Shown one piece after another: positions 22,085-54,189 of a DNA stretch of 64,000 bases. Below the pieces are notes generated by a model, which saw only the letters and a program-made list of their open reading frames with translations, did no database searches and had not been told where the DNA came from. How positions within the stretch are numbered: position 1 is the first letter of the stretch; each line of letters opens with the position of its first letter. This DNA is from a virus (lineage: Duplodnaviria; Heunggongvirae; Uroviricota; Caudoviricetes). The position numbers were made by a program, and so were the translations under genes. The stretch spans positions 14,142 through 78,141 of IMG/VR virus record IMGVR_UViG_3300033405_000012; one strand, written 5' to 3'.

Positions 22085-24763
22085 GTGATGCCCACCGTCC
22101 GTGAAGCACTCGACAAGTTCCTCCGTGCCCGGCAGACGCCGGCCAACGCCGATCTGGTCGGCCGCTGGGGCGTCCAGATGGAGACCCAGGTGAACGTGGC
22201 GGTGGGCAACGGGGAGCCTGTGGCGGGCAAGCGGTCCACGTTCACGAACGGCACCGACACATGGCATTCGATCCGGGTGCCCAAGGATGCCGACTCCGAG
22301 CCGAACTGGGAAGATTACGAGCTTCGGTACTCCTTCACGGAGCACGCCGAGGGGATTGGCTGTACGGGCTGGGACTGGCAGGCCCGCTGCTCCCGCTGGG
22401 TTGCCTTCGACTTCGACGCCTTGACCGGCCACGCCAAGGGCGTTGGCATCGAGAAAGACGCACTGGAAGCAGTCAGGCAGGCGGCTACGCAGCTTCCCTA
22501 TGTGGAGGTGCGCAAGAGCACCGGCGGGGGCGGCATCCACCTCTACGTCTATCTGGACAGCATCCCGTGCGAGAACCATACGGTCCACGCCGCCCTGGCC
22601 CGCTGCATCCTCGGCATGATGTCCAGCGAGTGCAACTTCGACTTCGCCTCAAAGATCGACTGTTGCGGCGGCGTCATGTGGATATGGCATCGCAAGATGA
22701 CCGCCGAGAACGGCGGCCTGAGCGTGATGAAGCCGGCCGCCAAAATGCTCACGGCGGCCGACCTGCCGGCCAACTGGCGAGACCACATCGAGGTGGTCAC
22801 GCGCAAAAGGAACAAGGTGCGGATCAACGAGGTGTCGGACGACGACCTCGACCCGTTCGAGGCCCTCGCTGCCGCGCAAAAGATCATCCCCCTGGACGCC
22901 AGCCACAAGGCCCAAATCGAAGCCCTGCAACGATCCAGTTGTACGACGCTCTGGAATCCCGACCACCACCTGCTGCAAACGCACACCTGCGCCCTGCAAG
23001 CGCTGATGGACGGGCCGGAGGCGAAGGAACTGGGGCTCGTCGGCGCGTTCAAGACCAGCTCCCAGGGCCGGAATCCCGGCAACCCAAACTGTTTCCTCTT
23101 TCCGCTGCCAAACGGTGCCTGGCGTGTGTTCCGTTTCTCCCCGGGCGTCTCGGAAGCCGAAACCTGGAGCCAGGACGGCCAAAGCTGGACAACCTGCTAC
23201 TTCAACCGCCGGCCGGACCTGGCAATCGCCGCGAAGGCGCATGGCGGGATGGAAGACCCGGACAAGAAAGGCTACGTCTTCCAAAGTCCCGACGACGCCA
23301 TGAAGGCCGCCAAGGTCTTGGGCCAGCCCGACACGGCCATCGACCCGATGTTCGAGGGCCGCAAGACATTGCTGAAACCGCACAAGGACGGCCGCTTGGT
23401 GGTGGAGATCGAGCGTGCCAAAGGGGACGCCGACCAGCCGGAGCCCAAAGGCTGGCTCGCCAAGAAGAGCAAGTGGGTCCGCGTCTTCGAGACCACCGTC
23501 CGGGAGCAAACGGACAACGCGGACGGCGAGACCGCGAAGTACGACAACCTCCTTCGCGCCGTCAAGACACCAGCCAAACAATTCGTCGGCTGGTCGCTCT
23601 TTGAGAAGAACGCGAAGGAATGGGTCTATCACCCCGGCGGCAACATCAAGATGCGATTGCAGAGCCTTGGCCATGCCAAGGATGAAGCCGAGTGCATCAT
23701 GGGCACCGCGCTGGGGGAGAGTTGGAAACTCGTCAACCTGCCCTTCCGCGAAGAGTACCCAGGCGGCCGGCAATGGAACCGGGATGCTGCGCAATTCAAG
23801 CACCAGCCCGCCGTGCTGGGCCCCGACGAGAAGCCGCGCCATCCGTATTGGGACATGATCTTCGACCACATCGGGCTGGAATTGACGCCCGTGCTCCGGG
23901 CCCTCCCGTGGGCACAGAAGGCCGGCATCAAGACGGGAGCCGATTATCTGCGCGCCTGGGTCGCCTGCGCCTTCCGCGACCCCTTCGAGCCGACGCCGTA
24001 CCTCTTTCTCTTTGGCAACGAGGACAACGGCAAGAGCATCTTCCACGAGGCGCTGATGACCTTGGTGACAAAAGGCGTCATCAAGGCCGACAAGGTGCTC
24101 AAGACGCGGGGCGATTTCAACGGAGAACTGGCGGGGGCCGTCATCTGCGCCATTGAAGAGACGGATATGTCCAGGGTGCCCGAGGCCCTGCCCCGCATCA
24201 AGGAATACGTCACGGCTCGCACGCTGGCCATCCGCGAGATGCGGATGAACACCTACCAAATTCCCAACACGACACACTGGGTCCAAACGGCCAACTTCCA
24301 GAGCCACTGTCCCGTCTTTCCTGGCGACACGCGAATCACCGTCATCGCGGTGTGTGACCTCCTGGAAGAACGGAAGATCGCCAAGCCGCTCCTGCTCGCC
24401 AAGCTGGACGAAGAAGCCCCGCACTTCCTGTATACGCTGATGACCCTGCAACTGCCGCCGATCATCGGTCGGCTGCGGCTGCCGGTGGTCGCCACGCCGA
24501 GCAAGTTCCGAACCCAGGAACAGAACAAGAGCCCCTTGCAGCATTTCCTCGACGACTTCTGCCTTGTCAAGAAGGACGCCCGCATTCGCTTCGGCGAGTT
24601 CTACGACGCCTTCCAGAAGACGCTCGACGCCAGCGAAAAGGGCGAATGGTCCCGTAAGCAGGTCAGCCGGAATCTCCCAAACCTTCACCAGGTTGTGAAG
24701 AGCAACGGCGAGCGATTCGTTCCCAACCTGGCCTTCAAGGCACCGGAGACGGGCCAATGTTGA
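22085..24763 (+). CDS. bifunctional primase-polymerase (Prim-Pol) fused to D5/P4-like SF3 helicase
   Basis: Prim-Pol motifs VAFDFDA and STGGGGIHLYVY. C-terminal Walker A FLFGNEDNGKS. 892 aa. Confidence 0.85.
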   Translation: MMPTVREALDKFLRARQTPANADLVGRWGVQMETQVNVAVGNGEPVAGKRSTFTNGTDTWHSIRVPKDADSEPNWEDYELRYSFTEHAEGIGCTGWDWQARCSRWVAFDFDALTGHAKGVGIEKDALEAVRQAATQLPYVEVRKSTGGGGIHLYVYLDSIPCENHTVHAALARCILGMMSSECNFDFASKIDCCGGVMWIWHRKMTAENGGLSVMKPAAKMLTAADLPANWRDHIEVVTRKRNKVRINEVSDDDLDPFEALAAAQKIIPLDASHKAQIEALQRSSCTTLWNPDHHLLQTHTCALQALMDGPEAKELGLVGAFKTSSQGRNPGNPNCFLFPLPNGAWRVFRFSPGVSEAETWSQDGQSWTTCYFNRRPDLAIAAKAHGGMEDPDKKGYVFQSPDDAMKAAKVLGQPDTAIDPMFEGRKTLLKPHKDGRLVVEIERAKGDADQPEPKGWLAKKSKWVRVFETTVREQTDNADGETAKYDNLLRAVKTPAKQFVGWSLFEKNAKEWVYHPGGNIKMRLQSLGHAKDEAECIMGTALGESWKLVNLPFREEYPGGRQWNRDAAQFKHQPAVLGPDEKPRHPYWDMIFDHIGLELTPVLRALPWAQKAGIKTGADYLRAWVACAFRDPFEPTPYLFLFGNEDNGKSIFHEALMTLVTKGVIKADKVLKTRGDFNGELAGAVICAIEETDMSRVPEALPRIKEYVTARTLAIREMRMNTYQIPNTTHWVQTANFQSHCPVFPGDTRITVIAVCDLLEERKIAKPLLLAKLDEEAPHFLYTLMTLQLPPIIGRLRLPVVATPSKFRTQEQNKSPLQHFLDDFCLVKKDARIRFGEFYDAFQKTLDASEKGEWSRKQVSRNLPNLHQVVKSNGERFVPNLAFKAPETGQC

Positions 24764-27844: not shown

Positions 27845-28398
27845 GCACGCCAAAGCTGCTCTGCGATACCTGCCCCGAGGGCCAAGGCACCCTCATTCCG
27901 ATGCCGACGACAGCCGGGCCGTCCGTCGCTCCTCCCGTGGCTTACATCGTCTACACGGGTGGCCCATACAGCTATCTCTACCGCATGGTCGAGGCCGCCA
28001 TTCCGCCGGACGCGGACCTCAAGCACGGCCGCCCTAAGTTCGCGGACGATGGCTCGTTTGAGTACCCGCCCGGTGACGCCGAGGTGGAAGATCTCCAGGG
28101 CTACCGGCGGAATGCCGAGAATCCGCGAAGGTTCCATCCCGCGTGGCCAGACTGCCTCTGTCGGCAGCTAAGCGTCTCGGTCAGCAACCGAATGCTCGTC
28201 ATTGCCGGCAAATGCTTTCAGCCGACGGCCGGACGGCTCAATCGCACCACGACCTTGGACGAGTGCCAGAAATGCCCATACCGGTACGCTTCGCGGCCAA
28301 TCGCCCCTCCGGGAGCGGCCGAGACAGCCATCAAGGCTACTGGCAAGACGGACGAGCCGGTGTCCCCGCCTTGTTCTGCCCAAGAGCGAACAGCTTGA
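27841..28398 (+). CDS. protein with a third copy of the same Cys domain
   Basis: FADDGSFEY...ENPRRFHPAWPDCLCR...C...CQKCPYR. ATGA overlap with the previous gene. Confidence 0.6.
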   Translation: MSTPKLLCDTCPEGQGTLIPMPTTAGPSVAPPVAYIVYTGGPYSYLYRMVEAAIPPDADLKHGRPKFADDGSFEYPPGDAEVEDLQGYRRNAENPRRFHPAWPDCLCRQLSVSVSNRMLVIAGKCFQPTAGRLNRTTTLDECQKCPYRYASRPIAPPGAAETAIKATGKTDEPVSPPCSAQERTA

Positions 28399-28440
28399 AA
28401 ACCTTGCACTCGGCACCAGCTTGCTGCCAACCTCCTTGGC
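28386..28440 (-). pseudogene. degenerate duplicate of the 3' end of the SPFH gene (31701..32276)
   Basis: Minus-strand translation ...AECKVFKLFALGQNKAG matches the SPFH C-terminus FAECKVFKLLTSQADKAG. The DNA repeat recurs at 31741-31790. Confidence 0.45.
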
Positions 28441-29133: not shown

Positions 29134-30570
29134 ATGGCTCGGCGACGTTCTATTCTCGCGGTGATTCTTGCGGGCGCGTCGTTCTGCGTCGTGCTCCCCG
29201 GTTGCCAACGACTGGACATCGAGCCGCCTGAGCCGGAAATATCCGACTCGAAAGGATTCGACGTTTCAGGCAAGTCACCGTCAACCTTTTCGCTCCCTGT
29301 CCAACTATCAATCAGCGAGGCTCAACAAATCTGCAATCAGAAGGCACCGGCTCATTTTCAGCAGACGATAACTCAGGGGGTTCAGGTCACTGGATTCGAC
29401 CATGAACATGTGGACCTTTCTGTGGATCGCAAGCCAATCACACTAGCGGCGGCTGCTGGCAATCGCGTTTCCTTTTCGATTCCGTTTTCTGGCGGCGCGA
29501 GTTGGCATGGGCAAACCCATGTTGGGCCCATTCATGGACCTTGGGTTCAAGAGGACGTTAATTTCTCCGGGAATATGCATGGAACTATTGGGTTCAGAAT
29601 CAACCCAGACTGGTCCATTACCCCGGATGCGCACGTTGAGGTAACAATAGATCAAGCTAAACTGGGCTTTCTTCACATCCTTAGTTTCGACGTGCGAGGG
29701 AAAGTTCAGGACATCGTTAATCACTCTGCGGTTGGACCGGCAAACCAAGCATTACATGCTGTTCTTGAGAAACTTCCAATCCGGTCGCAGGCTGAGAGCG
29801 CATGGAAGCAAATGCACCTTTCGAGGCGGCTGCTTGAATCGCCCAGTATTTGGCTGAATGTGCAACCGAAAGAGGTGCGCGTGAGCCCGGTGACCGTAGA
29901 AGGTGGTCTAGTCAAGGTGGCAGTCGGAGTCGCTGCGGCTACCACAGTCTACGTTGACAAATCGGCTCCGTCTGTTCCTCCGACTGCCCTCCCCGGACTC
30001 GTTATTGATCCAAATCTCTCTAACAGGTTCCTCATTACTTTGCCCGTTGTGGCTTCGCTCGACGAACTTCTCGTCAAAGCCAGAGAGGCGGTCAACGGAA
30101 AAGAGTTCACGGCGGAAGGGGTCAGTATAAGAGTGTCGAATGCCGCGGCGGAAGCTAGGGGTGCTTGGATTGTCCTGAGTTTCGACTTTTCTGCGTCGCA
30201 TGGACGAGTTCGGGCGAAGGGGAGGTTATTTGCTGTCGGGAGGCTACAGTACGATACCAAGTCCGAAACCGTCAGCGTTTCGGAGCTTGACTACGACATC
30301 GGAACTAAGAACGTTCTGCTGAAAGTAGCGAACTGGGTGCTCAAACCCCGCGTCTTGGAATCGGCCTCGAAGGACGCAAAGTTAAAGGCTCCACCGTTGC
30401 TCGCTCAGGCGAAAGACAAGGCTAATCAGTATTTCGCCGCGCTAAAAGCCCCAGCCGGAATAAAGCCAACGCTACAGGTGGACAAGCTCATTTTGGAAGA
30501 CGTTCGTCTGAGCAGTGGCGAAATGTTCCTTCTGCTGAGGGCCGAGGGCACAAGCCTGCTTAAGCTTTGA
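29134..30570 (+). CDS. lipoprotein (possibly DUF4403-like)
   Basis: Signal peptide with lipobox MARRRSILAVILAGASFCVVLPGC. 478 aa. Lower GC than the rest of the phage. Confidence 0.65.
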   Translation: MARRRSILAVILAGASFCVVLPGCQRLDIEPPEPEISDSKGFDVSGKSPSTFSLPVQLSISEAQQICNQKAPAHFQQTITQGVQVTGFDHEHVDLSVDRKPITLAAAAGNRVSFSIPFSGGASWHGQTHVGPIHGPWVQEDVNFSGNMHGTIGFRINPDWSITPDAHVEVTIDQAKLGFLHILSFDVRGKVQDIVNHSAVGPANQALHAVLEKLPIRSQAESAWKQMHLSRRLLESPSIWLNVQPKEVRVSPVTVEGGLVKVAVGVAAATTVYVDKSAPSVPPTALPGLVIDPNLSNRFLITLPVVASLDELLVKAREAVNGKEFTAEGVSIRVSNAAAEARGAWIVLSFDFSASHGRVRAKGRLFAVGRLQYDTKSETVSVSELDYDIGTKNVLLKVANWVLKPRVLESASKDAKLKAPPLLAQAKDKANQYFAALKAPAGIKPTLQVDKLILEDVRLSSGEMFLLLRAEGTSLLKL

Positions 30571-30780: not shown

Positions 30781-31509
30781 ATGGCCAGCCAATCCGAAGG
30801 GTCAAACCGCGCTGGCAAGGAGCCGGCGCGTGTTACAGACTTACTTGACAAGTACGGCAGCTATCGCCGGGCCGCGCAGAAGAGCGCAATCCTTGTGTTG
30901 GTCGTCAGCATTACGCTCGCTGCACTGAGCCGCAGCCCGACGTGGACACTGGACCCCCCGGGGCTCGGCCCGGTGAAGGTCGCATCACCCCCTGTGGGCA
31001 CTGCGAGCCAACTCATGCCCGTCTACGGCCCGTTAGTTGTCTGGCTTGTCTGTGTCCACTTCTACTGCGTTCTTTCGGCTGCACTTGGGTTGCGAAAGGC
31101 CATTCGGCGGGACCGGGGTGAGACGGAATCCAATCGGGGCGAGGACGCGATTCAAGAACTACTTAGCCCACCGTTGCTGGCGCTCTCAGCGAGGCAGAAT
31201 AGCTGCCTGTCGCGCCTGACCGCATACTTAGCCGTTTGCATTTGGTGCATCACGCCGTTGATCTGTTACATCTTCCTGTTTTCCGACTTTTGCTTGCTTC
31301 GGTTTGACGGCAAGGTGATTACTCGGGGCTACGAGTTGTTCTACACGTTCCGGGGCTGGACGGGCATTTGGCCGACCCAGCACCACGGAGTTTCTGGAGG
31401 CATACCTCCCGTTTTCCCTATTTGGCAGCCCTGGTTTTACGCTGCATTTCTTCTCCATACACTTTTCCTCACGTTGGATGCCATCCGTCGCATCCTCACC
31501 GCGACTTGA
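30781..31509 (+). CDS. polytopic membrane protein
   Basis: 242 aa with four or more hydrophobic helices (ILVLVVSITLAAL, LVVWLVCVHFYCVL, LAVCIWCITPLICYIFLF, FYAAFLLHTLFL). Confidence 0.6.
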   Translation: MASQSEGSNRAGKEPARVTDLLDKYGSYRRAAQKSAILVLVVSITLAALSRSPTWTLDPPGLGPVKVASPPVGTASQLMPVYGPLVVWLVCVHFYCVLSAALGLRKAIRRDRGETESNRGEDAIQELLSPPLLALSARQNSCLSRLTAYLAVCIWCITPLICYIFLFSDFCLLRFDGKVITRGYELFYTFRGWTGIWPTQHHGVSGGIPPVFPIWQPWFYAAFLLHTLFLTLDAIRRILTAT

Positions 31510-31620
31510 CTGAGTGGATGAAGACCATCTGAATGTTGCAGGGTCAGGCGGCAAGACGCTCGTGGCCGGCTGGCCCGGCCCCTGGATGCCCTCGACCCGA
31601 TTGGCGGGTCAGCGTTACGG

Positions 31621-31700
31621 AATCGCGGAACCGGGCAGTCGGGGTCAGGCCCCAGGGCTGCCACGCGCTCCTGGCGAATGGCCTCGGCCCTCGCCCACGA
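31621..31700 (-). pseudogene. remnant of the 3' end of a small-acidic-paralog gene
   Basis: Minus-strand translation ...EAIRQERVAALGPDPDCPVPRF, preceded by a stop. Near-identical DNA to 32688-32730 (MQTIG copy 1 C-terminus). Confidence 0.4.
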
Positions 31701-32276
31701 CTACTGGTAAAACTGGTGAGACGACATCCCCGCCTTGTCCGCCTGGGAAGTCAACAGCTTGAAGACCTTGCACTCGGCGAAATCCACCAGCTTGCTGCGG
31801 ACGACGTGGACGCCGAACTGCCGCAGTTCCTTGCGGACCTCTCTGGTCAGCGTCGTCGTCAGGCTGTCATCCGCAATCCCGTTCATTATCTCGTCGTAGG
31901 TGTGCGTGGCCACCACGCGAACCACCGCGGATTGCGTCAGATCGTTGATCGTCACGTCCACGTCCCAATTCACGCGACCGATGGCGTGGACGACATCCCT
32001 GATCTTGTAGACCACGAGGGTCTTGACCACCACCTTGCGACCGTCCTTCGTGGCAAGCACCTGGTCGGGAATGGCGATGGTCTGCCGGGCGGTCACGATC
32101 ACCTCCACCTCGGTCGTCAAAGGCCAATAGAGATGGAGGCCGGGATTCAAGGGCTTGATTTTCCTGCCCCGCACCCACTTCACCCCGCCGTGGGTTGCCC
32201 GCACGATCAGGATGTGCGGGACGAACCGGTAGATCGTCTCGACTAGCTGACTGAGCCAAGCAAAAGCGGATTCCAT
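31701..32276 (-). CDS. SPFH/band-7 domain protein
   Basis: PGLHLYWP...VEVIVTARQ...TKDGRKVVVKTLVVYKIRD...TINDLTQSAVVRVVATHTYDEIMNG fits the SPFH core pattern. Confidence 0.6.
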   Translation of the reverse strand: MESAFAWLSQLVETIYRFVPHILIVRATHGGVKWVRGRKIKPLNPGLHLYWPLTTEVEVIVTARQTIAIPDQVLATKDGRKVVVKTLVVYKIRDVVHAIGRVNWDVDVTINDLTQSAVVRVVATHTYDEIMNGIADDSLTTTLTREVRKELRQFGVHVVRSKLVDFAECKVFKLLTSQADKAGMSSHQFYQ

Positions 32277-32297: not shown

Positions 32298-32594
32298 TTA
32301 CCGCGTCTCGCCATTCGTAATGAACCCATGCCAGTGACCGCGCTTGCTGGCGTCGATCGACGGAGTGATCGACAGGACCGCGAAGTCCTCGTCAGAGCAG
32401 ATGGTCCAAACGAAGTCCTCTCGCCCGTTGGCATGGGCTCGGATGTACGTGTCGTCAATCGCCTCGTGCCCCTTGTGATGGAACGCGATACCCAGCCGCT
32501 CTATCCGGCAGTGCGGGCACAAGAAGGTGAGGCCGACATGCGGCCCTCCCTTCTCGAACGCGAACCAGCGCGGGTCTAGGGCAAGGAGCTTCAT
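32298..32594 (-). CDS. zinc-ribbon protein (DUF6527-like signature)
   Basis: CPHC, then SITPSIDAS...HWHGFITNGE resembles the PSI...HxHGFIxNG pattern of a conserved prophage family. 98 aa. Confidence 0.5.
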   Translation of the reverse strand: MKLLALDPRWFAFEKGGPHVGLTFLCPHCRIERLGIAFHHKGHEAIDDTYIRAHANGREDFVWTICSDEDFAVLSITPSIDASKRGHWHGFITNGETR

Positions 32595-32607: not shown

Positions 32608-32662
32608 GGGCAAAGAAAAGGGCATCCGGGCGCTGGTCGCCCGGATGCCCTTTCTCACTTCT
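32608..32662. terminator. strong bidirectional intrinsic terminator
   Basis: 13-bp perfect stem GGGCATCCGGGCG-CTGGT-CGCCCGGATGCCC. TTTCTCACTTCT follows on the plus strand and CUUUUCUUUG on the minus strand. Confidence 0.6.
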
Positions 32663-32676
32663 GAAACACCTCCACG

Positions 32677-32859
32677 TTACGGGATTGGAACCGGGCAGTC
32701 GGGGTCGGGCCCCAGGGCTGCCACGCGCTCGGCGCGAATGGCCTCGGCCGCCGCCCGCGCCTGGCGAATGTCCTGGTGGACATCCTCCGGGTCGCGGCCT
32801 TGGGCCTCGATCAGGGCCATGTCGCTATGGGTTGGCTTGGGAGCGCCAATCGTCTGCAT
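32677..32859 (-). CDS. small acidic protein, tandem paralog 1
   Basis: MQTIGAPKPTHSDMALIEAQGRDPEDV... 60 aa. Separated from the next copy by TAA-GCC-ATG. Confidence 0.5.
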   Translation of the reverse strand: MQTIGAPKPTHSDMALIEAQGRDPEDVHQDIRQARAAAEAIRAERVAALGPDPDCPVPIP

Positions 32860-32862
32860 GGC

Positions 32863-33045
32863 TTACTCCTTCTGGTTCTCGTAGACCCACCGCGGGCCCT
32901 CGGGCGGCATTGCCGCCCGGCGGACTTGCTCCGCAGCCCGCGCATCTTGGACATCCTGCTCCACGGTCGCCGGATCGCGGCCCTGCGCCGGGATCAGCGC
33001 CATGTCGTCGTGGGTCGGATGGGGATTGCTGCCGATTCCCTGCAT
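32863..33045 (-). CDS. small acidic protein, tandem paralog 2
   Basis: MQGIGSNPHPTHDDMALIPAQGRDPATV... 60 aa. Confidence 0.5.
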   Translation of the reverse strand: MQGIGSNPHPTHDDMALIPAQGRDPATVEQDVQDARAAEQVRRAAMPPEGPRWVYENQKE

Positions 33046-33048
33046 GGC

Positions 33049-33243
33049 CTAGAGTCCCTTCCACCCCTGGCCGTCGTAGACGGACGCCTTGTTGCACTCG
33101 GGGGCCTTCACGTCGCCCGACTCCGAGAGCGACTCGTTGAGGTCGGTCCGACGATCGGTGTGGTCGCCCGTGTCCCCTTCCGCCTGGACGAGGATCGTGT
33201 CGAGCGTACCGTTGCCCTGTTTCGGGGGTCCGATGGTCTGCAT
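33049..33243 (-). CDS. small acidic protein, tandem paralog 3 (diverged C-terminus)
   Basis: MQTIGPPKQGNGTLDTILVQAEGDTGD... 64 aa. Confidence 0.45.
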   Translation of the reverse strand: MQTIGPPKQGNGTLDTILVQAEGDTGDHTDRRTDLNESLSESGDVKAPECNKASVYDGQGWKGL

Positions 33244-33329: not shown

Positions 33330-33512
33330 CTACTTGCCCTTGCGGTGGTGGGCAAACTCACGCAGACGCCGAGCCAACGCGACCTGACGATTGGTTGTCG
33401 GGTCCTTGTGCTTCTCCCGCATGAACTGCGACAGGCTCTCGCCTGCTCGCTTGGCCTTGGCAGTCAAGGCCCCGGGGTGCTTGATCGCACCCTGAATCCA
33501 CTTCTCGGCCAT
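33330..33512 (-). CDS. small basic protein (DUF3008-like)
   Basis: MAEKWIQGAIKHPGALTAKAKRAGESLSQFMREKHKD... 60 aa. Confidence 0.4.
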   Translation of the reverse strand: MAEKWIQGAIKHPGALTAKAKRAGESLSQFMREKHKDPTTNRQVALARRLREFAHHRKGK

Positions 33513-42338: not shown

Positions 42339-43250
42339 CTAGCCCAGGATGCCCGCCCCGTCGTCCCACGCCGCAAGGGTCGCCCAGCCGGCCGCAGCCG
42401 GATTGATCGACCCGAAGAAGAAGCGGTTGTAGGGGCCCATCGTAAAGCCGCCCGGCTGCCACCCGTAGCCCCACTCGCCAAGCTCCAGCCAGTTGTGCCC
42501 GTTGTCGGAAACGCAAAAGTGGACGTTGCCGCTGCCCGAGTACCAGATTCGCAGCCACATCCAATCGAGCCAGGGCACGTCGCAAGGCGAAAGCGTGTCG
42601 TTGGGGTGGTAGTTCGCGCCCCCGTCCCACCAGTTGATATGGCAGGAGTGCTCGAACTGGCGGTAATTGAAGGCCCATGCCTGGTTGTTGGCGTCCATCA
42701 GGCCAATCGAGGCCCCGGCCCACACCAAGGCGTTCTGCGTCGTCACGCCGCGAACCGCCGTCGTCAAGGTCCAGGACGAGGTGGTGATCGGCCGGGTCAG
42801 GAGCGAATTGACGAGCCCGGTCTGTTGCAGCAGGATGGAACCGCCGTCGTCCATCGCTATCGCGTTGTTGCTGCCGAAGGTGAAGAGCGTGAAATCGGCG
42901 GCGTGCAAAAGGTTCTGGTTCGCGTCGATGATGCGGAACGGCGGCCGGAGGCTGTCGAACAAGGGGTCGTTGTCCCGCATGTACTGCTGGAAACCGCCCT
43001 CCGTCAACACTTGCGTCACGGTGGCACCGCCGGCATGGTAAGCCGCCGTCGTGCCCTCTTGTCCGCGCACCACGGTCAAGGTGTTCGCCGTGCGCGCGGT
43101 GCAGAGCATGATCTCGTCGTCAACCCGCACGCGGAAGTTCCCCGAGGCCGCGAAGACCGTCCCGGCCACGACCGCCAGCGTCGTGGCGGCCGTCGCCGCC
43201 GACGTGGCGAGCGTGGTCTGGGCCGTGTTACTGAACAATTCGCGGTTCAT
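42339..43250 (-). CDS. tail fibre protein, paralog A
   Basis: 303 aa. Shares N-terminal (AQTTL...LCT...LTV.R.QEGTTAA) and C-terminal (WMWLRI...TLAAWDDGAGILG) blocks with 43262..44152. Confidence 0.6.
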   Translation of the reverse strand: MNRELFSNTAQTTLATSAATAATTLAVVAGTVFAASGNFRVRVDDEIMLCTARTANTLTVVRGQEGTTAAYHAGGATVTQVLTEGGFQQYMRDNDPLFDSLRPPFRIIDANQNLLHAADFTLFTFGSNNAIAMDDGGSILLQQTGLVNSLLTRPITTSSWTLTTAVRGVTTQNALVWAGASIGLMDANNQAWAFNYRQFEHSCHINWWDGGANYHPNDTLSPCDVPWLDWMWLRIWYSGSGNVHFCVSDNGHNWLELGEWGYGWQPGGFTMGPYNRFFFGSINPAAAGWATLAAWDDGAGILG

Positions 43251-43261
43251 AGTCGGCTCCG

Positions 43262-44152
43262 CTAACTGCCCAAGAGGCCCGCGCCGTCATCCCACGCCGC
43301 CAACGTCACCCAGCCGCCGCTGGCCGGATTCATGGTGCCCCAGAAAAGGCGGTTCGGCGTACCCAGATAGGCACCCTTGCCAAAGCTGCCGACTTCCAGG
43401 AAGTTCCGGCCGTTGTCCGAAATCTGGAAATGCCAGTTGCCGTCGTTCGGATCGGTGATCCGCAGCCACATCCAGTCCCCGCAGCAGGCGTCGAAGGGCG
43501 AGACAATATCCGGCGCGACGTAGGCCCCGTTGTTCCACTTGTTGCAGTGGATCGACTTTTCGTGGGCTCGGTAATTGATCGCGCAGTAGCAGTTGTTGGT
43601 GTCCGCCACGCCGACAGAGAACGTGGACCACAGCCCGGCGTTGTTGGTAGAGACGCTGCGACCCGCGGCCGTCAGGGTCCAGGGTGAGGAACTTGGAATC
43701 GGCCGGGTCAAGTTGGCCCCCACCGGCGAGGCCATGACGATGCTGCCGCCGCAATCCACCACCGACGTGCCGGTCCCAAAATCCCACAGCGTAAAGTCCG
43801 CAGCGTGCAGGAAATTGCCGCTGGCATTGACAATCCGGTAGGGGGCTCGCAGGCTGTCGAACAACGGATCGTTGTCGCGGAGGTAGCGCTGCAAACCGCC
43901 CTGGGTGACAACCTGAGAGACATTCGTGCCGGTGCTATGGGTCGCCGCCGTCGTGCCCTCCTGGGCCCGCTGCACTGTCAAGGTGTTGCTGGAATTGAGC
44001 GTGCAAAGCACAAGCTCATGGTCGATCAGCAGCCGGAAATCACCCCCACTCGGAAACACGGAACCATCCGTGACCGTCAACGACGTGTCGCTGACTCCGG
44101 CGTCGGCGCTAAGCGTCGTCTGCGCGTCGTTCTGGAAGCACTCGCGGCGCAT
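43262..44152 (-). CDS. tail fibre protein, paralog B
   Basis: 296 aa. Collinear with paralog A, ~45% identity. Confidence 0.6.
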   Translation of the reverse strand: MRRECFQNDAQTTLSADAGVSDTSLTVTDGSVFPSGGDFRLLIDHELVLCTLNSSNTLTVQRAQEGTTAATHSTGTNVSQVVTQGGLQRYLRDNDPLFDSLRAPYRIVNASGNFLHAADFTLWDFGTGTSVVDCGGSIVMASPVGANLTRPIPSSSPWTLTAAGRSVSTNNAGLWSTFSVGVADTNNCYCAINYRAHEKSIHCNKWNNGAYVAPDIVSPFDACCGDWMWLRITDPNDGNWHFQISDNGRNFLEVGSFGKGAYLGTPNRLFWGTMNPASGGWVTLAAWDDGAGLLGS

Positions 44153-44860: not shown

Positions 44861-44887
44861 TGGGTCAACCCTTTCACGAGTTAAAGG

Positions 44888-45025
44888 AGAGGTGCCACGC
44901 CGCAACTCACGTCGCAGTTCCGTGGCAATGGACCCGGCCGTCTGGCAACGGGTTAGAGAACCGAGGTGCCACGCCGCAACTCACGTCGCAGTTCCGTGGC
45001 GATGGACCTGGCCGTCTGGCGGCCG
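44888..45025. repeat. tandem duplication (~75-bp period, two copies) at the tape-measure gene 3' end
   Basis: GAGGTGCCACGCCGCAACTCACGTCGCAGTTCCGTGGC[A/G]ATGGACC[C/T]GGCCGTCTGGC occurs twice. Confidence 0.6.
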
Positions 45026-48000
45026 GTGCCGCCGCCTTGGACCGTCACGTTGATGTCGCCAATGTTGGTGGTGTGGCCGCCTTGGCTGTGATACGAGGGC
45101 TTCACACCGGCGTTCATCGCGGTAAGCTGGGAAGCGAACCGGCGCGTCGTCGCCGCGCTCATTACCATTTCCCCCGGCGAGAGCATCGCCGGGATCACGT
45201 CCGTGCCGCGCGGGCGTCCACCGCCCGCCAAGAAGGCCATCCCGCCGTGGGCGGCCGTCATCGGGCCTTCCTCGGCCTGCGGCGGCTGGACAGTGGCCGC
45301 CGCCGCAGCCAACTCCGACATGGCATCCGCAGCCGACTCGATGGCCGATTGGAACGTGGCCATCGCGCTGTTGGCCTGGTTGATGGCCCCGGTGGTCTCG
45401 GAAAACTGATTGGTAATGTCCTGGACCTGCTTGCCGGAATCGGGAAACGCCTGCTTCAGGCGGTCGATGCCCTCGGTGGCCCCCTTCATCTGCTGATCCA
45501 GGTTGGGATATTTCGACTGGACGCCTCGAATCCGTTCCGCGTAGTCGAACATCTCCTTGAGGGTCTTGAGGTTCGCTTCCGTGCGGTCGAAGTTCAAGTC
45601 GAGGGACCAGGGCAGGTTCTTCTTCAACTCCTGGGTCTTCGCCACCAGGTCGTCGAGCGCCTTGGGCTCGATCTTCAGAGGATGCTTCTGCATCTCCAGG
45701 ATCGCTTCATTGATCTCGCGGAAGCTCGTGACCGCCGCCTGCAAGTCCGCCCTGCCCGTGGTGCCGAACACGCCCGTGAGCATATTCAAGCCGACCTTCG
45801 TGGCCTGCCACGCGCCGACGGAGCCCTCCTGCTGGACGGCCATGTTGGCGGTGATCTGCCGCTGCCGGCTTTCGATCTGCGCCAAGGCGTCGCGCTGCTG
45901 GTCGTAGGCTTCCTGGACCGCCCGGGCCGCTTGTGCCTGCTGCCGCGGATAGTTCTCGGCGGCCTTGAACTGCTCCTCGATGGTCTTGCCGATCAGCTTG
46001 GCGTGGTCGCCACCCACGAAGACATCCAAGTTGATCCGGCCCAGGCCCGTGGTGATCCGTTCATTCAGCTTGGCCAGAGACTCGGGGGCGACAAGCAGGT
46101 CGCGGACCTCGGCCTTCGTGACGGCTCCCTCCATCGTCTCACGCATCTTGCGTTTCATGGCGTCGAAGTTCAGCCAGTCGGACATCTCCCACTTCTTGCT
46201 GGCGAACATCAGACCTTGGAACTCCTGGATGGCCGCCTTCGTCTTCGCAATGGCCTGCTCGCGGTCCGGTCCGGCAAGAGGCTGATTCTTCTTGTCGAAC
46301 AGGTCCATGTCCTTGGAGATTTCCTTGGCCAGCTCACGCATCCGCGTGACAGTCCGCTCCTCGTCGGCCGCGGCGTCCGCCGCCGCCTTGGCCTGCTTTT
46401 GCTTGGAGGCCCGCAAGCCTTCGTTGGCGGCAAGCTCGCTTTCCAGGACACGCTCGATCGCCGCCTCGGCATCCTGTTGCCCGAGGGTGTCATGCCGGCG
46501 CTGGGCAATCTGCATCGACTCCTGCGCGTAGGCTTGGGCCCGCTTGTAGATGCTCTGGGCCACGTCGATGTCCTGCGGCGTCTTGGCCTTGGACATCATC
46601 TCCTCGGCCTGGCTCGCCAGCGTGAAAGCCTGGCCGGCGAAATCCTTCTGCTGTTCCCAGGTGCTCTTCCACTGGCTCTCGTACCAGCGGAAGCGGGTGT
46701 CCGCCAGGGTGCCGGCAATCTCCGTGCCCCGCTTCATCGAATCCGAAATGGCGCGGTCGGCTTCATTGGCCAGGTTGCGGAGGACGTGGACCTCCTTCTC
46801 GGCTTCGTCCACGATCTTCAACATGGTGGCGTGCGAGTCGTCCGTCAGGCGCTTGTTGTCCACCTGGGTCTCGTCCACCATCTTGAAGTAGTCTCTGCGG
46901 CGCTCGGTCAGGGCTTGCTCGGCCCGCTGCACGACGGCCTGGTTGGCACGGTCCTCCTCCTCGATGCGCCGCTGGTTGACCTGCTGAATCGCGCTCAGCC
47001 GGTCGGATTCCGCCTTGCGGAACTCCTCTTCGGCCTGCCGGATGCCCTGAATGATCCGCGTGTTGGCGAAGTCGAAGGCACCGTATGCCAACATTGCCAC
47101 CATGAGACCGTTGATCGCCAAGCCCAGTGGACCAAGCCCCAAAGTGGCCAAGCGAGCCGACATGGCCATCGAACCCAGGGCGACTGCAAAGCCGCCGAAC
47201 GCCGTCACGCCAAGCCCCAGAACGGGGATCAAGGCTTTCACGGCCGCGCCGACCGCATCCGCGCCTCCGACGACGCCCAGAAACTTGTCCGTGGCCTCGA
47301 CAATCGCCGCGCCCAGGTCCGTGGTGAGGAACGTCTTGAACTTGTTCAACTCCGCGAGCGTTTTCTGGGCGTCGCTCTCGATGAACAGCTTGTACTTCTC
47401 ATTGAAGGTGGCAACGCTCATTTCGCGGAGGTGCTGAACGGCGTCCGCCGTCCGCTTTCCGCTGTCGTCCGTCTCGCGCAAGGCCCCGCTGATCGCCCGC
47501 ACGTTGGGGATCAGGCGGGCGAAAGCCGCCATGTTCTCGTCGGTGCTCTGTCGCAGCTTGACCAAGGCCCCTTCGAGCCCCAGGGCCGCGATCATCTGCG
47601 GGCCGGACTCGTAGCCCAGATCGTGCAATTCCTTCTTCAAGTCCTGCGAAGGTTTTATGAGGGCCATCATGGCGGAACGCAGCGCCGTGGCGGCTTCGGC
47701 CGGCTTGACGCCGGAGACGGTCAGCGTGACCATCATGGCGTTCAGCTCGTCGAGGCTTACGCCCAGCTCACTCGACACGGCCGTCACGCGGCCCAGCACC
47801 GAGGCCAACTCCTCGCCCCGCACCCGGCCAATCTGGATTGTGGCAAAGAACTTCGCGGCCACCTGCTCGGCTTGGCTGGACTGCATGTGGTAGGCGTTGA
47901 GAGTGCCCGCAATCAGGTTGACCGCCTGCCCGGCATCCATGACGGCCACTTTCGACAGCTTGAAGGCCGCCGTCAGCACGTCCGTCTGTTGCGCGGCGGA

Positions 48001-48657
48001 CGCGAATTGGTTGGAAATGGCCTGATACTGTGCCTCGGCCACCTGCGCCAGCGGGATGTTGAACTCCCGGGACAGATTGGCCACACTATGCGAAATCATG
48101 TCCAGGCTGTTGCTGACGCCGGGGGAGATCGACTGGATTTCAGCGATCCGCGTCATAAATTGCAGATTGCTGTCGAACGCCTCGTGCATCATGTCGCGCA
48201 GGGCGCTCATGGCCCGCACGATGGCCTGCGTCATCACGACCCGGCTCAGCGTTTCCCAGGACACGACGAACTTGGCCGCCGCCCGGTCGGCCTCTTCGAT
48301 CGAGGAGGCATCGACTTCGGGCTTGATCTTCTTGCCCTTGGCGGCCCCGCCGGGCGTCTGCTCGCCGGCCCCGGGGCCGGCCGCGACTTGGCCGGCAGCC
48401 CCGGACGCCTGTTGCTGCTGTTGGGCGGAGAAGGCCGCTTGGAGCTTCGACATGGCGGCGGCAGCCGAAGCCGCGCCGGAGGCAATGTCCTTGAGGACCT
48501 GGACCGTCTCGCGGCCGTGCTCGTTCCACACGGACATGGACTCGGCCACGCGGCTCAACTGCGCGTCGAAGCCGCTCAAGGCTTGGTCCATCTTGGCCAG
48601 CGCCTCAAGGCCGGCGGAGGCGTCGAAGCCTAGCTGTTGAACGATTTCATCAGCCAT
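44953..48657 (-). CDS. tail tape measure protein
   Basis: ~1230 aa, alpha-helical, Ala/Gln/Glu-rich, with central hydrophobic Gly-rich segment LGLGVTAFGGFAVALGSMAMSARLATLGLGPLGLAINGLMVAML. Confidence 0.85.
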   Translation of the reverse strand: MADEIVQQLGFDASAGLEALAKMDQALSGFDAQLSRVAESMSVWNEHGRETVQVLKDIASGAASAAAAMSKLQAAFSAQQQQQASGAAGQVAAGPGAGEQTPGGAAKGKKIKPEVDASSIEEADRAAAKFVVSWETLSRVVMTQAIVRAMSALRDMMHEAFDSNLQFMTRIAEIQSISPGVSNSLDMISHSVANLSREFNIPLAQVAEAQYQAISNQFASAAQQTDVLTAAFKLSKVAVMDAGQAVNLIAGTLNAYHMQSSQAEQVAAKFFATIQIGRVRGEELASVLGRVTAVSSELGVSLDELNAMMVTLTVSGVKPAEAATALRSAMMALIKPSQDLKKELHDLGYESGPQMIAALGLEGALVKLRQSTDENMAAFARLIPNVRAISGALRETDDSGKRTADAVQHLREMSVATFNEKYKLFIESDAQKTLAELNKFKTFLTTDLGAAIVEATDKFLGVVGGADAVGAAVKALIPVLGLGVTAFGGFAVALGSMAMSARLATLGLGPLGLAINGLMVAMLAYGAFDFANTRIIQGIRQAEEEFRKAESDRLSAIQQVNQRRIEEEDRANQAVVQRAEQALTERRRDYFKMVDETQVDNKRLTDDSHATMLKIVDEAEKEVHVLRNLANEADRAISDSMKRGTEIAGTLADTRFRWYESQWKSTWEQQKDFAGQAFTLASQAEEMMSKAKTPQDIDVAQSIYKRAQAYAQESMQIAQRRHDTLGQQDAEAAIERVLESELAANEGLRASKQKQAKAAADAAADEERTVTRMRELAKEISKDMDLFDKKNQPLAGPDREQAIAKTKAAIQEFQGLMFASKKWEMSDWLNFDAMKRKMRETMEGAVTKAEVRDLLVAPESLAKLNERITTGLGRINLDVFVGGDHAKLIGKTIEEQFKAAENYPRQQAQAARAVQEAYDQQRDALAQIESRQRQITANMAVQQEGSVGAWQATKVGLNMLTGVFGTTGRADLQAAVTSFREINEAILEMQKHPLKIEPKALDDLVAKTQELKKNLPWSLDLNFDRTEANLKTLKEMFDYAERIRGVQSKYPNLDQQMKGATEGIDRLKQAFPDSGKQVQDITNQFSETTGAINQANSAMATFQSAIESAADAMSELAAAAATVQPPQAEEGPMTAAHGGMAFLAGGGRPRGTDVIPAMLSPGEMVMSAATTRRFASQLTAMNAGVKPSYHSQGGHTTNIGDINVTVQGGGTGRQTARSIATELRRELRRGTSVL

Positions 48658-49148
48658 TACCGCACCTTGATCTTCATGGACTTCAAGCACTCGAACGGAT
48701 TCGGCAGCCGCACCCCCTCAGCAAACTTGCGGAACGCCGCTTTCCCTTTTCCCTGGAAGTCGTAGGGGCCGGGCTTCTTGAGGTGGAAGCCCCATTGCGT
48801 GGCGTCGAAATACTCGTTGATAATCAGCCAGGGCAGCGTCGTCTGGTACTGGAAGACGTACCGCCCCCTCGCCTCGTCGGTCTCCAGGGAACCACTGCTT
48901 TCCGCGATGCCGCGGCCAATGCGGCTCGGGGCCACGGGGAAAATCGGGATGTTGTACTCGACGTTGCGGGCCAGCGCCAGAAAAGTCGCCCGCGATGCAC
49001 CGCTCCACACCGGCACCTCCGCGAGCACGGTCGCTTCCAACCACTGCACGATCGCCTGGGCCAGGGCCTCGCGCAGATGCTTGTCCAGCGTCCGGCGGTA
49101 CTTCTCCATGTCGATGCTCAGCGCGGTGAACGTGCCGGTGAACTTCAT
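48657..49148 (-). CDS. hypothetical protein between chaperone and TMP
   Basis: 163 aa. Overlaps the TMP start. Confidence 0.5.
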   Translation of the reverse strand: MKFTGTFTALSIDMEKYRRTLDKHLREALAQAIVQWLEATVLAEVPVWSGASRATFLALARNVEYNIPIFPVAPSRIGRGIAESSGSLETDEARGRYVFQYQTTLPWLIINEYFDATQWGFHLKKPGPYDFQGKGKAAFRKFAEGVRLPNPFECLKSMKIKVR

Positions 49149-49959: not shown

Positions 49960-51360
49960 TTACACGTTGTCGCAGTCCGTGCCGCGGTAGGTGGTCGGCT
50001 CCTTGGCCAAGCACTTGCCGGTGAGCACGATGGTCGCCGCGTTGTAGTTGATCTCGCGGGTCTCGGCACGGAACATCGGGAACACGTTCGTCTCCCGGTT
50101 GACCGGAGCGCACGGCGGGTTGTACTCGCAGAGCACGTCCACGCAGTAGGGCTCGCAGGCGTCGGGCGAGGAACTGACCCACTCGGCGGCACTGTTGACG
50201 CCCTTCAAGGCGTCCATCGGGCACACCGCCTCGCCGGTGCCGTTGGTGATGTGCTCGTACACGGCGTCCACCTTCACGTCCATCGGCACGTCCTTGGACT
50301 CGCGCACCGTGTCCAGCCAGCCGCGGTCCAACAGGTAGGTGTAGTCGCGGTGCTCGGTGTAGGTCAGGTTGCCCTCGCCGATCTTGACGTAGACCTCCTG
50401 CGACTTGAAGGTGATCGCGGCGCTGGCGGCATACGTGCCCGCGCCCAGGGGCGGCGAGAACGTGATGCTCGTGGTGCTTCCGCCGCCGGCCGTCACTGCC
50501 GCACCCGCCGCCACTTCGGCCACGGCAACCGCAGCGCCGCTGCCGGTCAGCGCCGACGTGACCGGAACCAGAAGCGGTTGCGGTGCGTGAGCCAGCGTGC
50601 CCTGGAACGTCACGGTGTAGCTGCCGGCCGTCCCGGTCACGGCGACATTTCCCGCCCCGATGCTCGCCATCGCGGTCAAGGCCGTCGCCACGGCATCCGC
50701 GGCGGCGTTGTAGGCGATGCCCGCCGTCTCGCAGCCGCCCCAAACCAGGCTGAACGTGCCGCCCGAGGCATTCTGCACCGTCACCGACTGCACCTCGTTC
50801 TGGCCGCTGCCGGTGGGTGGCGCGCCGGCCGTCGTCTCGGCGATGGCGACCGTGGCGCTGGTGCCGATCAATTCCGAGGTGTCGGCGATCAAGAGCGGCT
50901 GCGGCGCGTTGGCCAGCGAGCCTTGGAACGTCACGGTGTAGCTGCCGGGCGTCCCGGTCACGGCGATGTTCCCGGAAGCCCCCACCAGCGGAGCCAACGC
51001 TGCGGCGATGTCCGTGGGAGCGGCGTCGTAGGCCAGCTCGGTGGTCTGGCCGCTGCCCCAGAACAGCTTGAACGTGCCGCCCGTGGCGTTCTGGACCGTC
51101 ACCGACTGCACTTCGTTCGCGCCGCCGGTGCCGGAGCCTTGCGTGCGGCCCGTGACTGTGTGGTTGAGCGGACTCGTTTCGCCCGCGATGTTGAAGCGAG
51201 CGCCGATCGGGACGAGTCCGGGGTTGAGGCTGTTCAGCGCCACCGTGCCAATCGACAGGGTGGTGGCACCGGCGACCGGTGCCGTCGCGGGCCCGACCGC
51301 GGACCCCTTCAGACCATCCCTCATGCGGATGGTGCAGTATTTCAGTTCGATGCGAGCCAT
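49960..51360 (-). CDS. major tail protein with two internal ~95-aa tandem (Ig-like) repeats
   Basis: Repeats NEVQSVTVQNA(T/S)GGTF...VTGT(P/A)GSYTVTFQG(S/T)LA(N/H)APQPLL. Position immediately upstream of the chaperone-TMP. Confidence 0.6.
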   Translation of the reverse strand: MARIELKYCTIRMRDGLKGSAVGPATAPVAGATTLSIGTVALNSLNPGLVPIGARFNIAGETSPLNHTVTGRTQGSGTGGANEVQSVTVQNATGGTFKLFWGSGQTTELAYDAAPTDIAAALAPLVGASGNIAVTGTPGSYTVTFQGSLANAPQPLLIADTSELIGTSATVAIAETTAGAPPTGSGQNEVQSVTVQNASGGTFSLVWGGCETAGIAYNAAADAVATALTAMASIGAGNVAVTGTAGSYTVTFQGTLAHAPQPLLVPVTSALTGSGAAVAVAEVAAGAAVTAGGGSTTSITFSPPLGAGTYAASAAITFKSQEVYVKIGEGNLTYTEHRDYTYLLDRGWLDTVRESKDVPMDVKVDAVYEHITNGTGEAVCPMDALKGVNSAAEWVSSSPDACEPYCVDVLCEYNPPCAPVNRETNVFPMFRAETREINYNAATIVLTGKCLAKEPTTYRGTDCDNV

Positions 51361-51388
51361 GTCGATGGCCTCCTGTTGGTCCAACTGT

Positions 51389-52755: not shown

Positions 52756-54189
52756 TTAGCCCTGGAGGACACAGCACAGGTTGGTGTCCAGGATGGCGAC
52801 CCCGGCCAGGATGTCGAGGTTGACCACCGTTCCGCCGCCCGTGATGCTGTACTGCATCGAGACCCTCATGGCGATGTCGTTGTAGACACCGACGTGAGCC
52901 AACACGCCCATCGCGTTGTTGGGGATGGCCAGCGGACGAGTGACCAGGGCGATGGCGTTGCGGTGGAACGCCATGTTCAGCGCGCCGGACGGGCCCGGAT
53001 AGCACGGGTCGGCGTTGTTCAGGGCCAGTTCCAGCGGACGATCCAGGTAGACGGCCTGGTAGCCGCCGACCGGGTTCGGGTTCCCGGAGGCATCCGAGGC
53101 GTAGGACTCGATCACCGTGTAGTTCCGGCGGTTGCTGCCGGTGCCGAAGGCGACCAACTGGCCGATGGACGGCGCGTTGGTGTAGCCCTGCAACTGCACG
53201 GAGGCGACCCAACCGGCGGCGTAGCTGCCGGCCACGGAGCACGCCTTGTAGCAGGCGTACTGGGCACCGGCCTGCGTGGCGTACTTGTTCGCCTCGTTGA
53301 GGGTCACGGTGCTGTGGTCGGTGGCGACCGCGGTGACGTAGGTCGGCTGGTCGTTGCCGGCCACGACGAGGAACTCGCCGACCGCCGGGTTGTGGGCCGT
53401 GTCCACGGTCACGGCCTGCGCGCCGCTGCCCGCAGCGGCCAGGGCGTTGGTGACGGTGCCGAACGACACGTCGCAACTGGTCTGCTGAACGGCATTGACG
53501 TTCTGGTCCATGTACGTGTCGAAACCGAGGATGCGACCGAGGGTGGCGCTTTCCAACGCCGTCCCGAAGTCGCCGCGCTGCTGGGCCGCGATGAACAGCT
53601 CGTTCTTCAACAGGGCCGTCTCGCTGATCGGGGCCAACACGAGGTTGCGCCCTTCCAGCGGGGCCTTGTTGACGTTGAGCTGCTCGCGGGCCTCCAGCAC
53701 GAAGTCCTTGCTGTTGTCCGCGGCCAGGTTGTTCAGCCGGCCGACCCGCTGGGTCGGGCTGCCCAGGAACCCGTGGACGCGGCCCAGGACGGCCCGGTCC
53801 ACCGAACGGGCAATCGTCATCATGCCCGGCCGGAGGTAGATGTCCACCAGGTCTTGGAACGACTTGCTGGCCTCGCCGTCCTTGATGGTGAAGCTGGTGT
53901 AGAACCACTGGTCCAAGGGCACCTGGACGTTCGTGGCCGAAGCGTCCTGGTTCTGGAGCGTGGTGCCGTCCTGCTTGCGGCGAATCTGGAACGTGCCGGG
54001 CCGGCGGGTGTTCACCACGTCGCCGAACTGCCGGATTTCGTTCTCGAAGTCGCGGTGGACCAGGTTGGCGATGACCATGTTCTCCTGGAGGATCGCCAAG
54101 CCTTCCGCGGCCCACAGCTCGGGAACGAAGGCGGTGTTGTCGTTGTCGTAGCAAGCGACCACCGCGGGGGAGAGGTACAACGGATTCAT
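52756..54189 (-). CDS. major capsid protein (T7 gp10-like HK97 fold)
   Basis: Pattern similar to T7 gp10 (NLVLAPISETALLKNELF...LGRILGFDTYMDQNV). Lies directly after the scaffold gene. 477 aa. Confidence 0.65.
   Translation of the reverse strand: MNPLYLSPAVVACYDNDNTAFVPELWAAEGLAILQENMVIANLVHRDFENEIRQFGDVVNTRRPGTFQIRRKQDGTTLQNQDASATNVQVPLDQWFYTSFTIKDGEASKSFQDLVDIYLRPGMMTIARSVDRAVLGRVHGFLGSPTQRVGRLNNLAADNSKDFVLEAREQLNVNKAPLEGRNLVLAPISETALLKNELFIAAQQRGDFGTALESATLGRILGFDTYMDQNVNAVQQTSCDVSFGTVTNALAAAGSGAQAVTVDTAHNPAVGEFLVVAGNDQPTYVTAVATDHSTVTLNEANKYATQAGAQYACYKACSVAGSYAAGWVASVQLQGYTNAPSIGQLVAFGTGSNRRNYTVIESYASDASGNPNPVGGYQAVYLDRPLELALNNADPCYPGPSGALNMAFHRNAIALVTRPLAIPNNAMGVLAHVGVYNDIAMRVSMQYSITGGGTVVNLDILAGVAILDTNLCCVLQG

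Follow-up and report, generated by a model that had tools for sequence, protein, structure and literature searches.

A late-operon array of three small acidic paralogues in an uncultured peat phage belongs to a lineage-restricted protein family with a shared N-terminal block

The internal proteins of bacteriophage T4, IPI, IPII and IPIII, carry an N-terminal capsid targeting sequence, which the prohead protease removes at a defined cleavage motif, in front of differing payloads, and the main members of this group are basic. Other very small phage proteins assist in the construction of the tail: T4 gp57A is a small helical tail-fibre chaperone encoded beside the fibre genes, and the genes for chaperones of the Tfa type immediately follow large tail or fibre genes.

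Here we describe an array of three small genes in a 64,000-nucleotide stretch of phage DNA (the window), which form the end of the late, virion-structure operon in an uncultured phage from peat or bog. By analogy, the nearest functional counterpart appears to be the internal-protein and capsid-targeting system of T4. In both cases several small late proteins share a short N-terminal block followed by unrelated remainders, the genes are produced alongside virion components, and the block of the array, judging by the chimeras described below, is an exchangeable module. The two systems differ in that they have no sequence similarity and no T4-type prohead protease or cleavage motif was found in the array phage; the array proteins are acidic where those of T4 are basic, and their C-termini are conserved between phages whereas the T4 loci are hypervariable. 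The T4 proteins lie within the capsid and are ejected with the DNA; the array proteins may likewise be ejected or internal proteins, as had been suggested from the sequence. As with the gp57A-type chaperones, the array proteins are very small, acidic and helix-containing, with no globular fold, and like the Tfa-type genes the array lies directly behind large tail genes; however, there is no homology to the gp57A type, and the array comprises three paralogues with distinct conserved termini and a helix that is not amphipathic. Small size and acidity are also shared with Ocr, ArdA and the small acidic anti-CRISPRs, from which the array differs in having no predicted stable fold, a modest charge density, late core-like genes and no family match. 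The features of holins and spanins are absent, as none of the three proteins has a hydrophobic stretch or an N-terminal signal. The three genes, in the order of transcription, are:

33049-33243, minus strand: g1, the type C member, 64 aa, pI 4.5
32863-33045, minus strand: g2, the type B member, 60 aa, pI 4.9, with its ATG 3 nt past the g1 stop
32677-32859, minus strand: g3, the type A member, 60 aa, pI 4.8, with its ATG 3 nt past the g2 stop

Each product is hydrophilic (GRAVY -0.5 to -1.05) and has a computed net charge of -4 to -5. The N-terminal block of g1 reads MQTIGPPK..GTLDTILVQAEGDTGD and its C-terminal motif VYDGQGWKGL; that of g2 is MQGIGSNPHPTHDDMALIPAQGRDP, with the C-terminal motif GPRWVYE followed by an acidic tail; g3 combines a B-like N-terminal block with a C-terminal tail, LGPDPDCPVPIP, that is nearly invariant. 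Over their first 31 residues g2 and g3 are 71% identical (BLASTP E = 7e-12), and the type C and type A profiles align over their first 40 columns with an hhalign probability of 95.9% (E = 6.5e-9). These comparisons and the isoelectric points bear out the proposal, made from the sequence alone, of three paralogous acidic genes with a common N-terminal block and differing acidic C-termini. All elements of that proposal are found where it placed them, on the minus strand. The base composition of the codons (GC3 0.80-0.89 against GC2 0.45-0.51) fits the annotated frame, other gene callers agree with it, and the same arrangement was found again in five independent assemblies from several samples.

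The junctions between the genes had been described as identical. The window does contain the stop-GCC-ATG arrangement, as TAG-GCC-ATG and TAA-GCC-ATG, but the exact GCC spacer is local to this genome. In related phages the spacer is ACC, ACG or CCT, or is replaced by a TAATG overlap or by 2-14 nt; a stop codon, 3 nt and an ATG is the usual junction of family genes across the high-GC clade, and distant relatives have far longer spacers (51 nt measured in L020; loci are given here by L numbers). Purine-rich, Shine-Dalgarno-like AAGGGA or AAGGAG sequences lie within the last codons of the upstream gene at the array junctions. The 3-nt gaps and the placement of these putative ribosome-binding sites in upstream coding sequence suggest that g1, g2 and g3 are translationally coupled. 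As the three genes share one frame in the window, a read-through polyprotein was considered; spacers of -1, 2, 5 or 14 nt in relatives led us to abandon it.

The surroundings of the array, from the virion genes on the minus strand to the replication genes on the plus strand, are as follows.

64 kb to 33.5 kb, minus strand: BNR-repeat proteins, a beta-helix protein, a 1349-aa lectin-domain protein and a 1022-aa tail protein
52756-54189, minus strand: P22-type coat protein
44953-48690, minus strand: tape-measure protein
33330-33512, minus strand: ORF for a basic 60-aa protein, pI 11.4, charge +10, matching phrog_20603 (E = 1e-9)
32612-32656, minus strand: intrinsic terminator, GC-rich stem GGGCAUCCGGGCG / CGCCCGGAUGCCC, then UUUUCUUU
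22085-24763, plus strand: DUF5906 primase-like gene of the replication module that converges on the array end
plus strand, same replication module: RNase_T exonuclease
left of this module: methylases, ParB, family A DNA polymerase and ligase

The array is collinear with the genes for the tape-measure protein, the beta-helix, lectin and 1022-aa tail proteins and the P22-type coat protein, and on the minus strand of the late operon no terminator-like site was found before the end of g3. The terminator that follows g3 folds with -42.1 kcal/mol over an 85-nt stretch (z = -4.7; none of 200 shuffles was as good), and an equivalent hairpin and U-tract follows the type A gene in L001, L007, L013, L014 and L020. 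An Rfam search of the region returned a single sub-threshold match, which is accounted for by the terminator hairpin. Since minus-strand virion genes and their terminator here meet a convergent plus-strand replication module, the array closes the late operon at a module boundary, in agreement with the boundary position that had been suggested from the sequence. The basic 60-aa protein is the first gene of the conserved small-gene block and precedes the array wherever related loci reach that far. As a clue to function it was set aside: its unannotated family is widespread in unrelated phages and occurs in head or tail modules that have no acidic array (L046, L048, L049). The wider unannotated family of this basic protein gave 95 matches.

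The window is phage-like along its whole length. Its first 28,400 positions encode a family A DNA polymerase, an ATP-dependent ligase, Dam-type and N6/N4 methylases, two ParB-like proteins, a sigma-70 region 4 protein, the DUF5906 primase-like and RNase_T proteins, a DeoC-like aldolase and an NT5C nucleotidase. Neither an integrase nor a tRNA was found in the window and ParB is present, which suggests a plasmid-like or strictly lytic lifestyle. Other duplications occur in the tail module: tandem paralogous genes for 303 and 296 aa at 42339-44152 (minus strand) have 64% nucleotide identity, and L001 has three such genes; a 474-aa ORF at 49960-51384 contains an internal tandem repeat of about 320 bp (50497-51153); and the 3' end of the tape-measure gene carries a 72-bp tandem duplicate that is 90% identical (44876-45020).

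We took 55 loci from collections of viruses and metagenomes, the first 45 of which were scanned with a family HMM. Conservation of the family frames extends over about 45 related loci of metagenomic or viral origin. Within the high-GC clade the genes run in the order tail protein, basic 60-aa protein, type C, type B, type A and hairpin terminator, and it is kept although the neighbouring tail protein is just 40-62% identical across loci. A profile search of 5.8 billion proteins gave 48 homologues, all of about 60 aa, metagenomic and unannotated, and an exhaustive HMM search of 1.84 billion cluster representatives gave only 32 clusters, all of 42-131 aa. Searches with g3 and the tail protein found no match in 185,579 species-representative genomes, so no host can be named, nor did tblastn searches with the same two proteins against the cultured phages of INPHARED. 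Pfam, PHROGs, NCBIfam, PADLOC and the PDB, searched with single proteins and with a 38-member alignment, gave chance-level matches only, such as a TALE repeat (E = 0.007) and PriA_C (E = 0.03). The sequence-only reading had named two outcomes that would count against it, frames that did not recur in related phages and assignment to a characterised family; the frames recur in those related loci, and none of the five libraries supplies an assignment. The array genes belong to a small, lineage-restricted and previously undescribed family of acidic proteins of 55-95 aa.

All members have three parts: a shared N-terminal block of 25-40 residues, a poorly conserved linker that is helical or disordered, and a short, strongly conserved C-terminal motif specific to each type. 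The consensus of the block is MQxIG-PKPTHxDMxLIPAQGRD, with the variant ..DTILVQAEGxTGD in type C. The three types are distinguished by their C-terminal ends.

Type A: conserved C-terminal end ..AAEAIRAERVAALGPDPDCPVPIP, with the motif LGPDPDCPVPIP-COOH; 21 distinct nucleotide sequences, pooled pN/pS 0.32
Type B: conserved end GPQWV[YH]D and a variable acidic tail, often Cys-bearing; 17 distinct nucleotide sequences, pooled pN/pS 0.45
Type C: conserved end [KV]YDGxxWKG[LVA]-COOH; 22 distinct nucleotide sequences, pooled pN/pS 0.59

The pooled ratios indicate that all three types are under purifying selection. Over the final 10 codons of type A, pN falls to 0.009 while pS is 0.39, and synonymous divergence is 0.36-0.63 even across the conserved motifs. 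Because the synonymous sites vary, what is being conserved is the protein rather than the DNA; a constraint at the DNA or RNA level on the type A 3' end is ruled out by a pS of 0.36-0.39 where pN is 0.009-0.08. The linkers are close to neutral, with pN and pS both 0.56 in type B columns 41-50 and pN/pS of 0.85-0.97 in type C columns 31-50. Short conserved motifs set between free linkers are a pattern that, at the level of sequence, is typical of linear-motif proteins. Structure prediction is in keeping with this: AlphaFold models g3 as a single helix (residues 24-48) with extended ends and a pLDDT of 77, and g1 as mostly unstructured, with a short helix at residues 31-44 and a pLDDT of 58. The array proteins are therefore predicted to have no globular fold. 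A coiled-coil heterotrimer was considered and rejected, as the g3 helix has the same hydrophobic moment as its shuffled sequences and is not significantly amphipathic.

The array varies in copy number among the relatives, where it holds two, three or four genes. L025-L029 and L037 have two, a type C gene and a type A gene with a B-type N-terminus (MEGICSNPKPTH..); this fusion is the product expected from unequal crossing-over between the 5' blocks of B and A. The reciprocal kind of chimera, a type A N-terminus with a type B C-terminus, occurs in L044. Four members occur in L016 and two each in L018 and L020, with A-like forms of about 90 aa. The variation in copy number and the occurrence of both B/A and A/B chimeras suggest that the shared 5' block has undergone unequal or homologous recombination. 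Type A N-termini fall into two classes, one of their own type, 41-59% identical to the B blocks of the same loci, and one B-like, 67-81% identical to same-locus B blocks and up to 85% to the best B block anywhere. The g3 gene of the window belongs to the B-like class, so part of the similarity among the window genes arises because paralogues have exchanged sequence. In L020 the basic 60-aa gene, C, A, the terminator and the SPFH gene described below form a block on the strand opposite the tail gene, where it again follows large genes with no assigned function; the block can therefore move as a unit.

A decayed copy lies downstream of the array:

31613-31702, minus strand: type A 3'-end fossil, abutting the SPFH stop codon

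The fossil is 86.7% identical over 90 bp to 32675-32762 (E = 5e-23) and 88.5% identical to the type A gene of L013, and a 2-nt insertion shifts its frame. A fourth 3'-end remnant, placed at 31621-31700 on first reading, is therefore real, with slightly wider limits. A second fossil, at 28337-28427, is a copy of the 3' end of the SPFH gene (75% identical), and the two bracket a DUF4403 gene (29134-30570, plus strand) and a 242-aa ORF (30781-31509). They look like nested recombination scars that would mark a hot spot of insertion where the late and replication modules converge. Another contig (L027 and L045) has a comparable degenerate copy of type A, some 6.4 kb downstream of its array.

Between the terminator and the replication module, the gap from 28.4 to 32.6 kb is occupied by accessory genes for a DUF6527 protein, an SPFH protein, the 242-aa protein, which has no family match, and the DUF4403 protein. 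The first two are:

32298-32594, minus strand: DUF6527 (BubE-family) protein, 98 aa (PF20137, E = 2e-5, above the gathering score)
31701-32276, minus strand: SPFH/Band_7 protein, 191 aa (Pfam PF01145, E = 1.7e-20)

The SPFH protein is well conserved and weakly resembles HflK and HflC. Full or partial copies of its gene lie downstream of type A in L007, L008, L014, L016, L018, L020, L032 and L040, and short overlapping partial matches occur in L021, L035, L036 and L039; the gene was not found in the flanks examined of the L001 clade. It is a frequent downstream neighbour associated with the array, past the terminator. A literature search on phage SPFH proteins turned up genome announcements only. 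The DUF6527 protein is a neighbouring moron between the terminator and the SPFH gene, outside the array, and homologues occur in the related phages L007, L008 and L014. BubE is a peptidase with a Ser-His dyad, encoded in bacterial ubiquitination-like (Bub) operons, that cleaves Ubl conjugates (bioRxiv 10.1101/2024.11.21.623953). Residues S79 and H89 of the phage protein are 10 residues apart, which is the spacing of the catalytic S92 and H102 of BubE, and this copy beside tail genes could be a counter-defence deconjugase. The DUF6527 protein may surpass the array in interest.

Several functions have been suggested by the small size and acidity of the array proteins or by their neighbours. They could be soluble effectors directed at the host, either anti-defence proteins or inhibitors of host enzymes, that fold on a host target outside the virion. 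Many phage inhibitor proteins are small, acidic, and disordered or helical in isolation, as the array proteins are predicted to be on their own; the array adjoins the accessory zone of the DUF6527, SPFH and DUF4403 genes, and its copy number differs between phages. Nevertheless, we consider this reading unlikely. The genes are the last cistrons of a late structural operon rather than part of an early or accessory island, and in the related loci that reach far enough past the tail gene they are core-like, with order and motifs conserved; no HTH (Aca-like) gene is adjacent. The particular case of a DNA-mimic anti-restriction protein, raised from the sequence, finds little in its favour: the isoelectric points of 4.5-4.9 are acidic as anticipated, but the predicted structure is one helix with extended tails in place of a DNA-mimicking globular fold, the charge is only -4 to -5, Pfam and PADLOC give no match, and the operon is late. 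A role as diversifying decoys is not supported either: purifying selection is seen among the orthologues of every type, and the type A tail hardly varies. The SPFH neighbour raises another possibility, a membrane-directed module formed with the array and acting in lysis timing, modulation of an FtsH-type protease or superinfection exclusion. The SPFH gene follows the array in many loci and stays with it in L020, its product has the weak likeness to HflK and HflC noted above, and the late operon shows no recognisable canonical lysis genes towards its end. Against such a module, a strong terminator separates the two in every locus examined, the L001 clade keeps the array and its invariant type A tail with no SPFH gene in the flanks examined, and the three hydrophilic proteins have no hydrophobic segment; this makes it rather improbable in our view.

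Two further readings concern the nature of the genes themselves, and both are very improbable. A conserved N-terminus followed by differing C-termini, with Cys in many C-terminal tails, recalls RiPP-type precursor peptides, in which a variable core is modified and released from a conserved leader, and the locus had been likened to precursor peptides on this account. However, neither the neighbourhood of the array nor the Pfam tables of the related loci contained a maturase, protease or exporter domain; a double-glycine or other known leader motif is absent, the genes lie in the late operon of a phage, and the supposed variable core of type A, with its Pro-rich end, is the most conserved part of the protein. 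The genes might alternatively be spurious ORFs of a high-GC sequence, or decaying duplicates with no function: high GC content yields many long overlapping ORFs on both strands of this region, and one copy, at 31613-31702, has truly decayed. This reading is refuted by pN/pS ratios well below 1 under saturating synonymous change, by the fit of GC3 to the frame, and by the conservation of length, order and start contexts in dozens of loci, where only the family frames recur and the overlapping frames do not.

We tentatively favour an explanation in which the array proteins are linear-motif adaptors or cargo, produced together late in infection, with N-terminal docking and paralogue-specific C-terminal partners, although we place only limited confidence in it. 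The common N-terminal block would dock all three proteins onto one phage partner or site, and each type-specific C-terminal motif would engage a different partner. Docking would take place during late infection, probably in the setting of virion assembly or of the virion itself, because the array sits directly behind the tail-tip genes. The type motifs persist in L020, which is more AT-rich on reading (judged by eye) and whose host may differ from that of the window phage; if the host does differ, the persistence of the motifs slightly favours a phage-encoded partner. The acidity of the proteins, the non-amphipathic g3 helix and C-terminal parts that are conserved between phages, unlike those of the T4 loci, are points against the adaptor or cargo model. 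A scan with the family HMM found no other ORF in the window that carries the N-terminal block, and the head-module ORFs (52.7-58.2 kb) yielded no prohead protease domain, so the analogy to T4 comes without its mechanistic parts.

A more specific form of this explanation, which we regard as improbable, is that the N-terminal block is a new virion 'address' that loads interchangeable short C-terminal payload peptides into the particle for delivery to the host, in a phage whose coat is of the P22 type and in which no prohead protease was recognised. The payloads could then act as effectors, or as decoys for host defences directed at tail proteins, for example by Ubl conjugation. If so, the neighbouring BubE-like peptidase would belong to the same counter-defence theme.

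The practical impact of these observations is limited, because the family is uncharacterised, lineage-specific and has no cultured representative. It is a new family of small size, restricted to one lineage, whose evolutionary dynamics are clear. The array provides a clean natural example of multigene-family evolution among very small phage proteins, in which unequal crossing-over in the shared 5' block would yield deletion fusions, chimeras and expansions, and the recombination scars would mark an adjacent hot spot of gene insertion. If the N-terminal block is a docking or targeting signal, the family would represent a second, independently evolved design of common address and different payload besides that of T4, and would offer a compact tag of about 25 residues for loading peptides onto or into the virions of an unrelated phage group.
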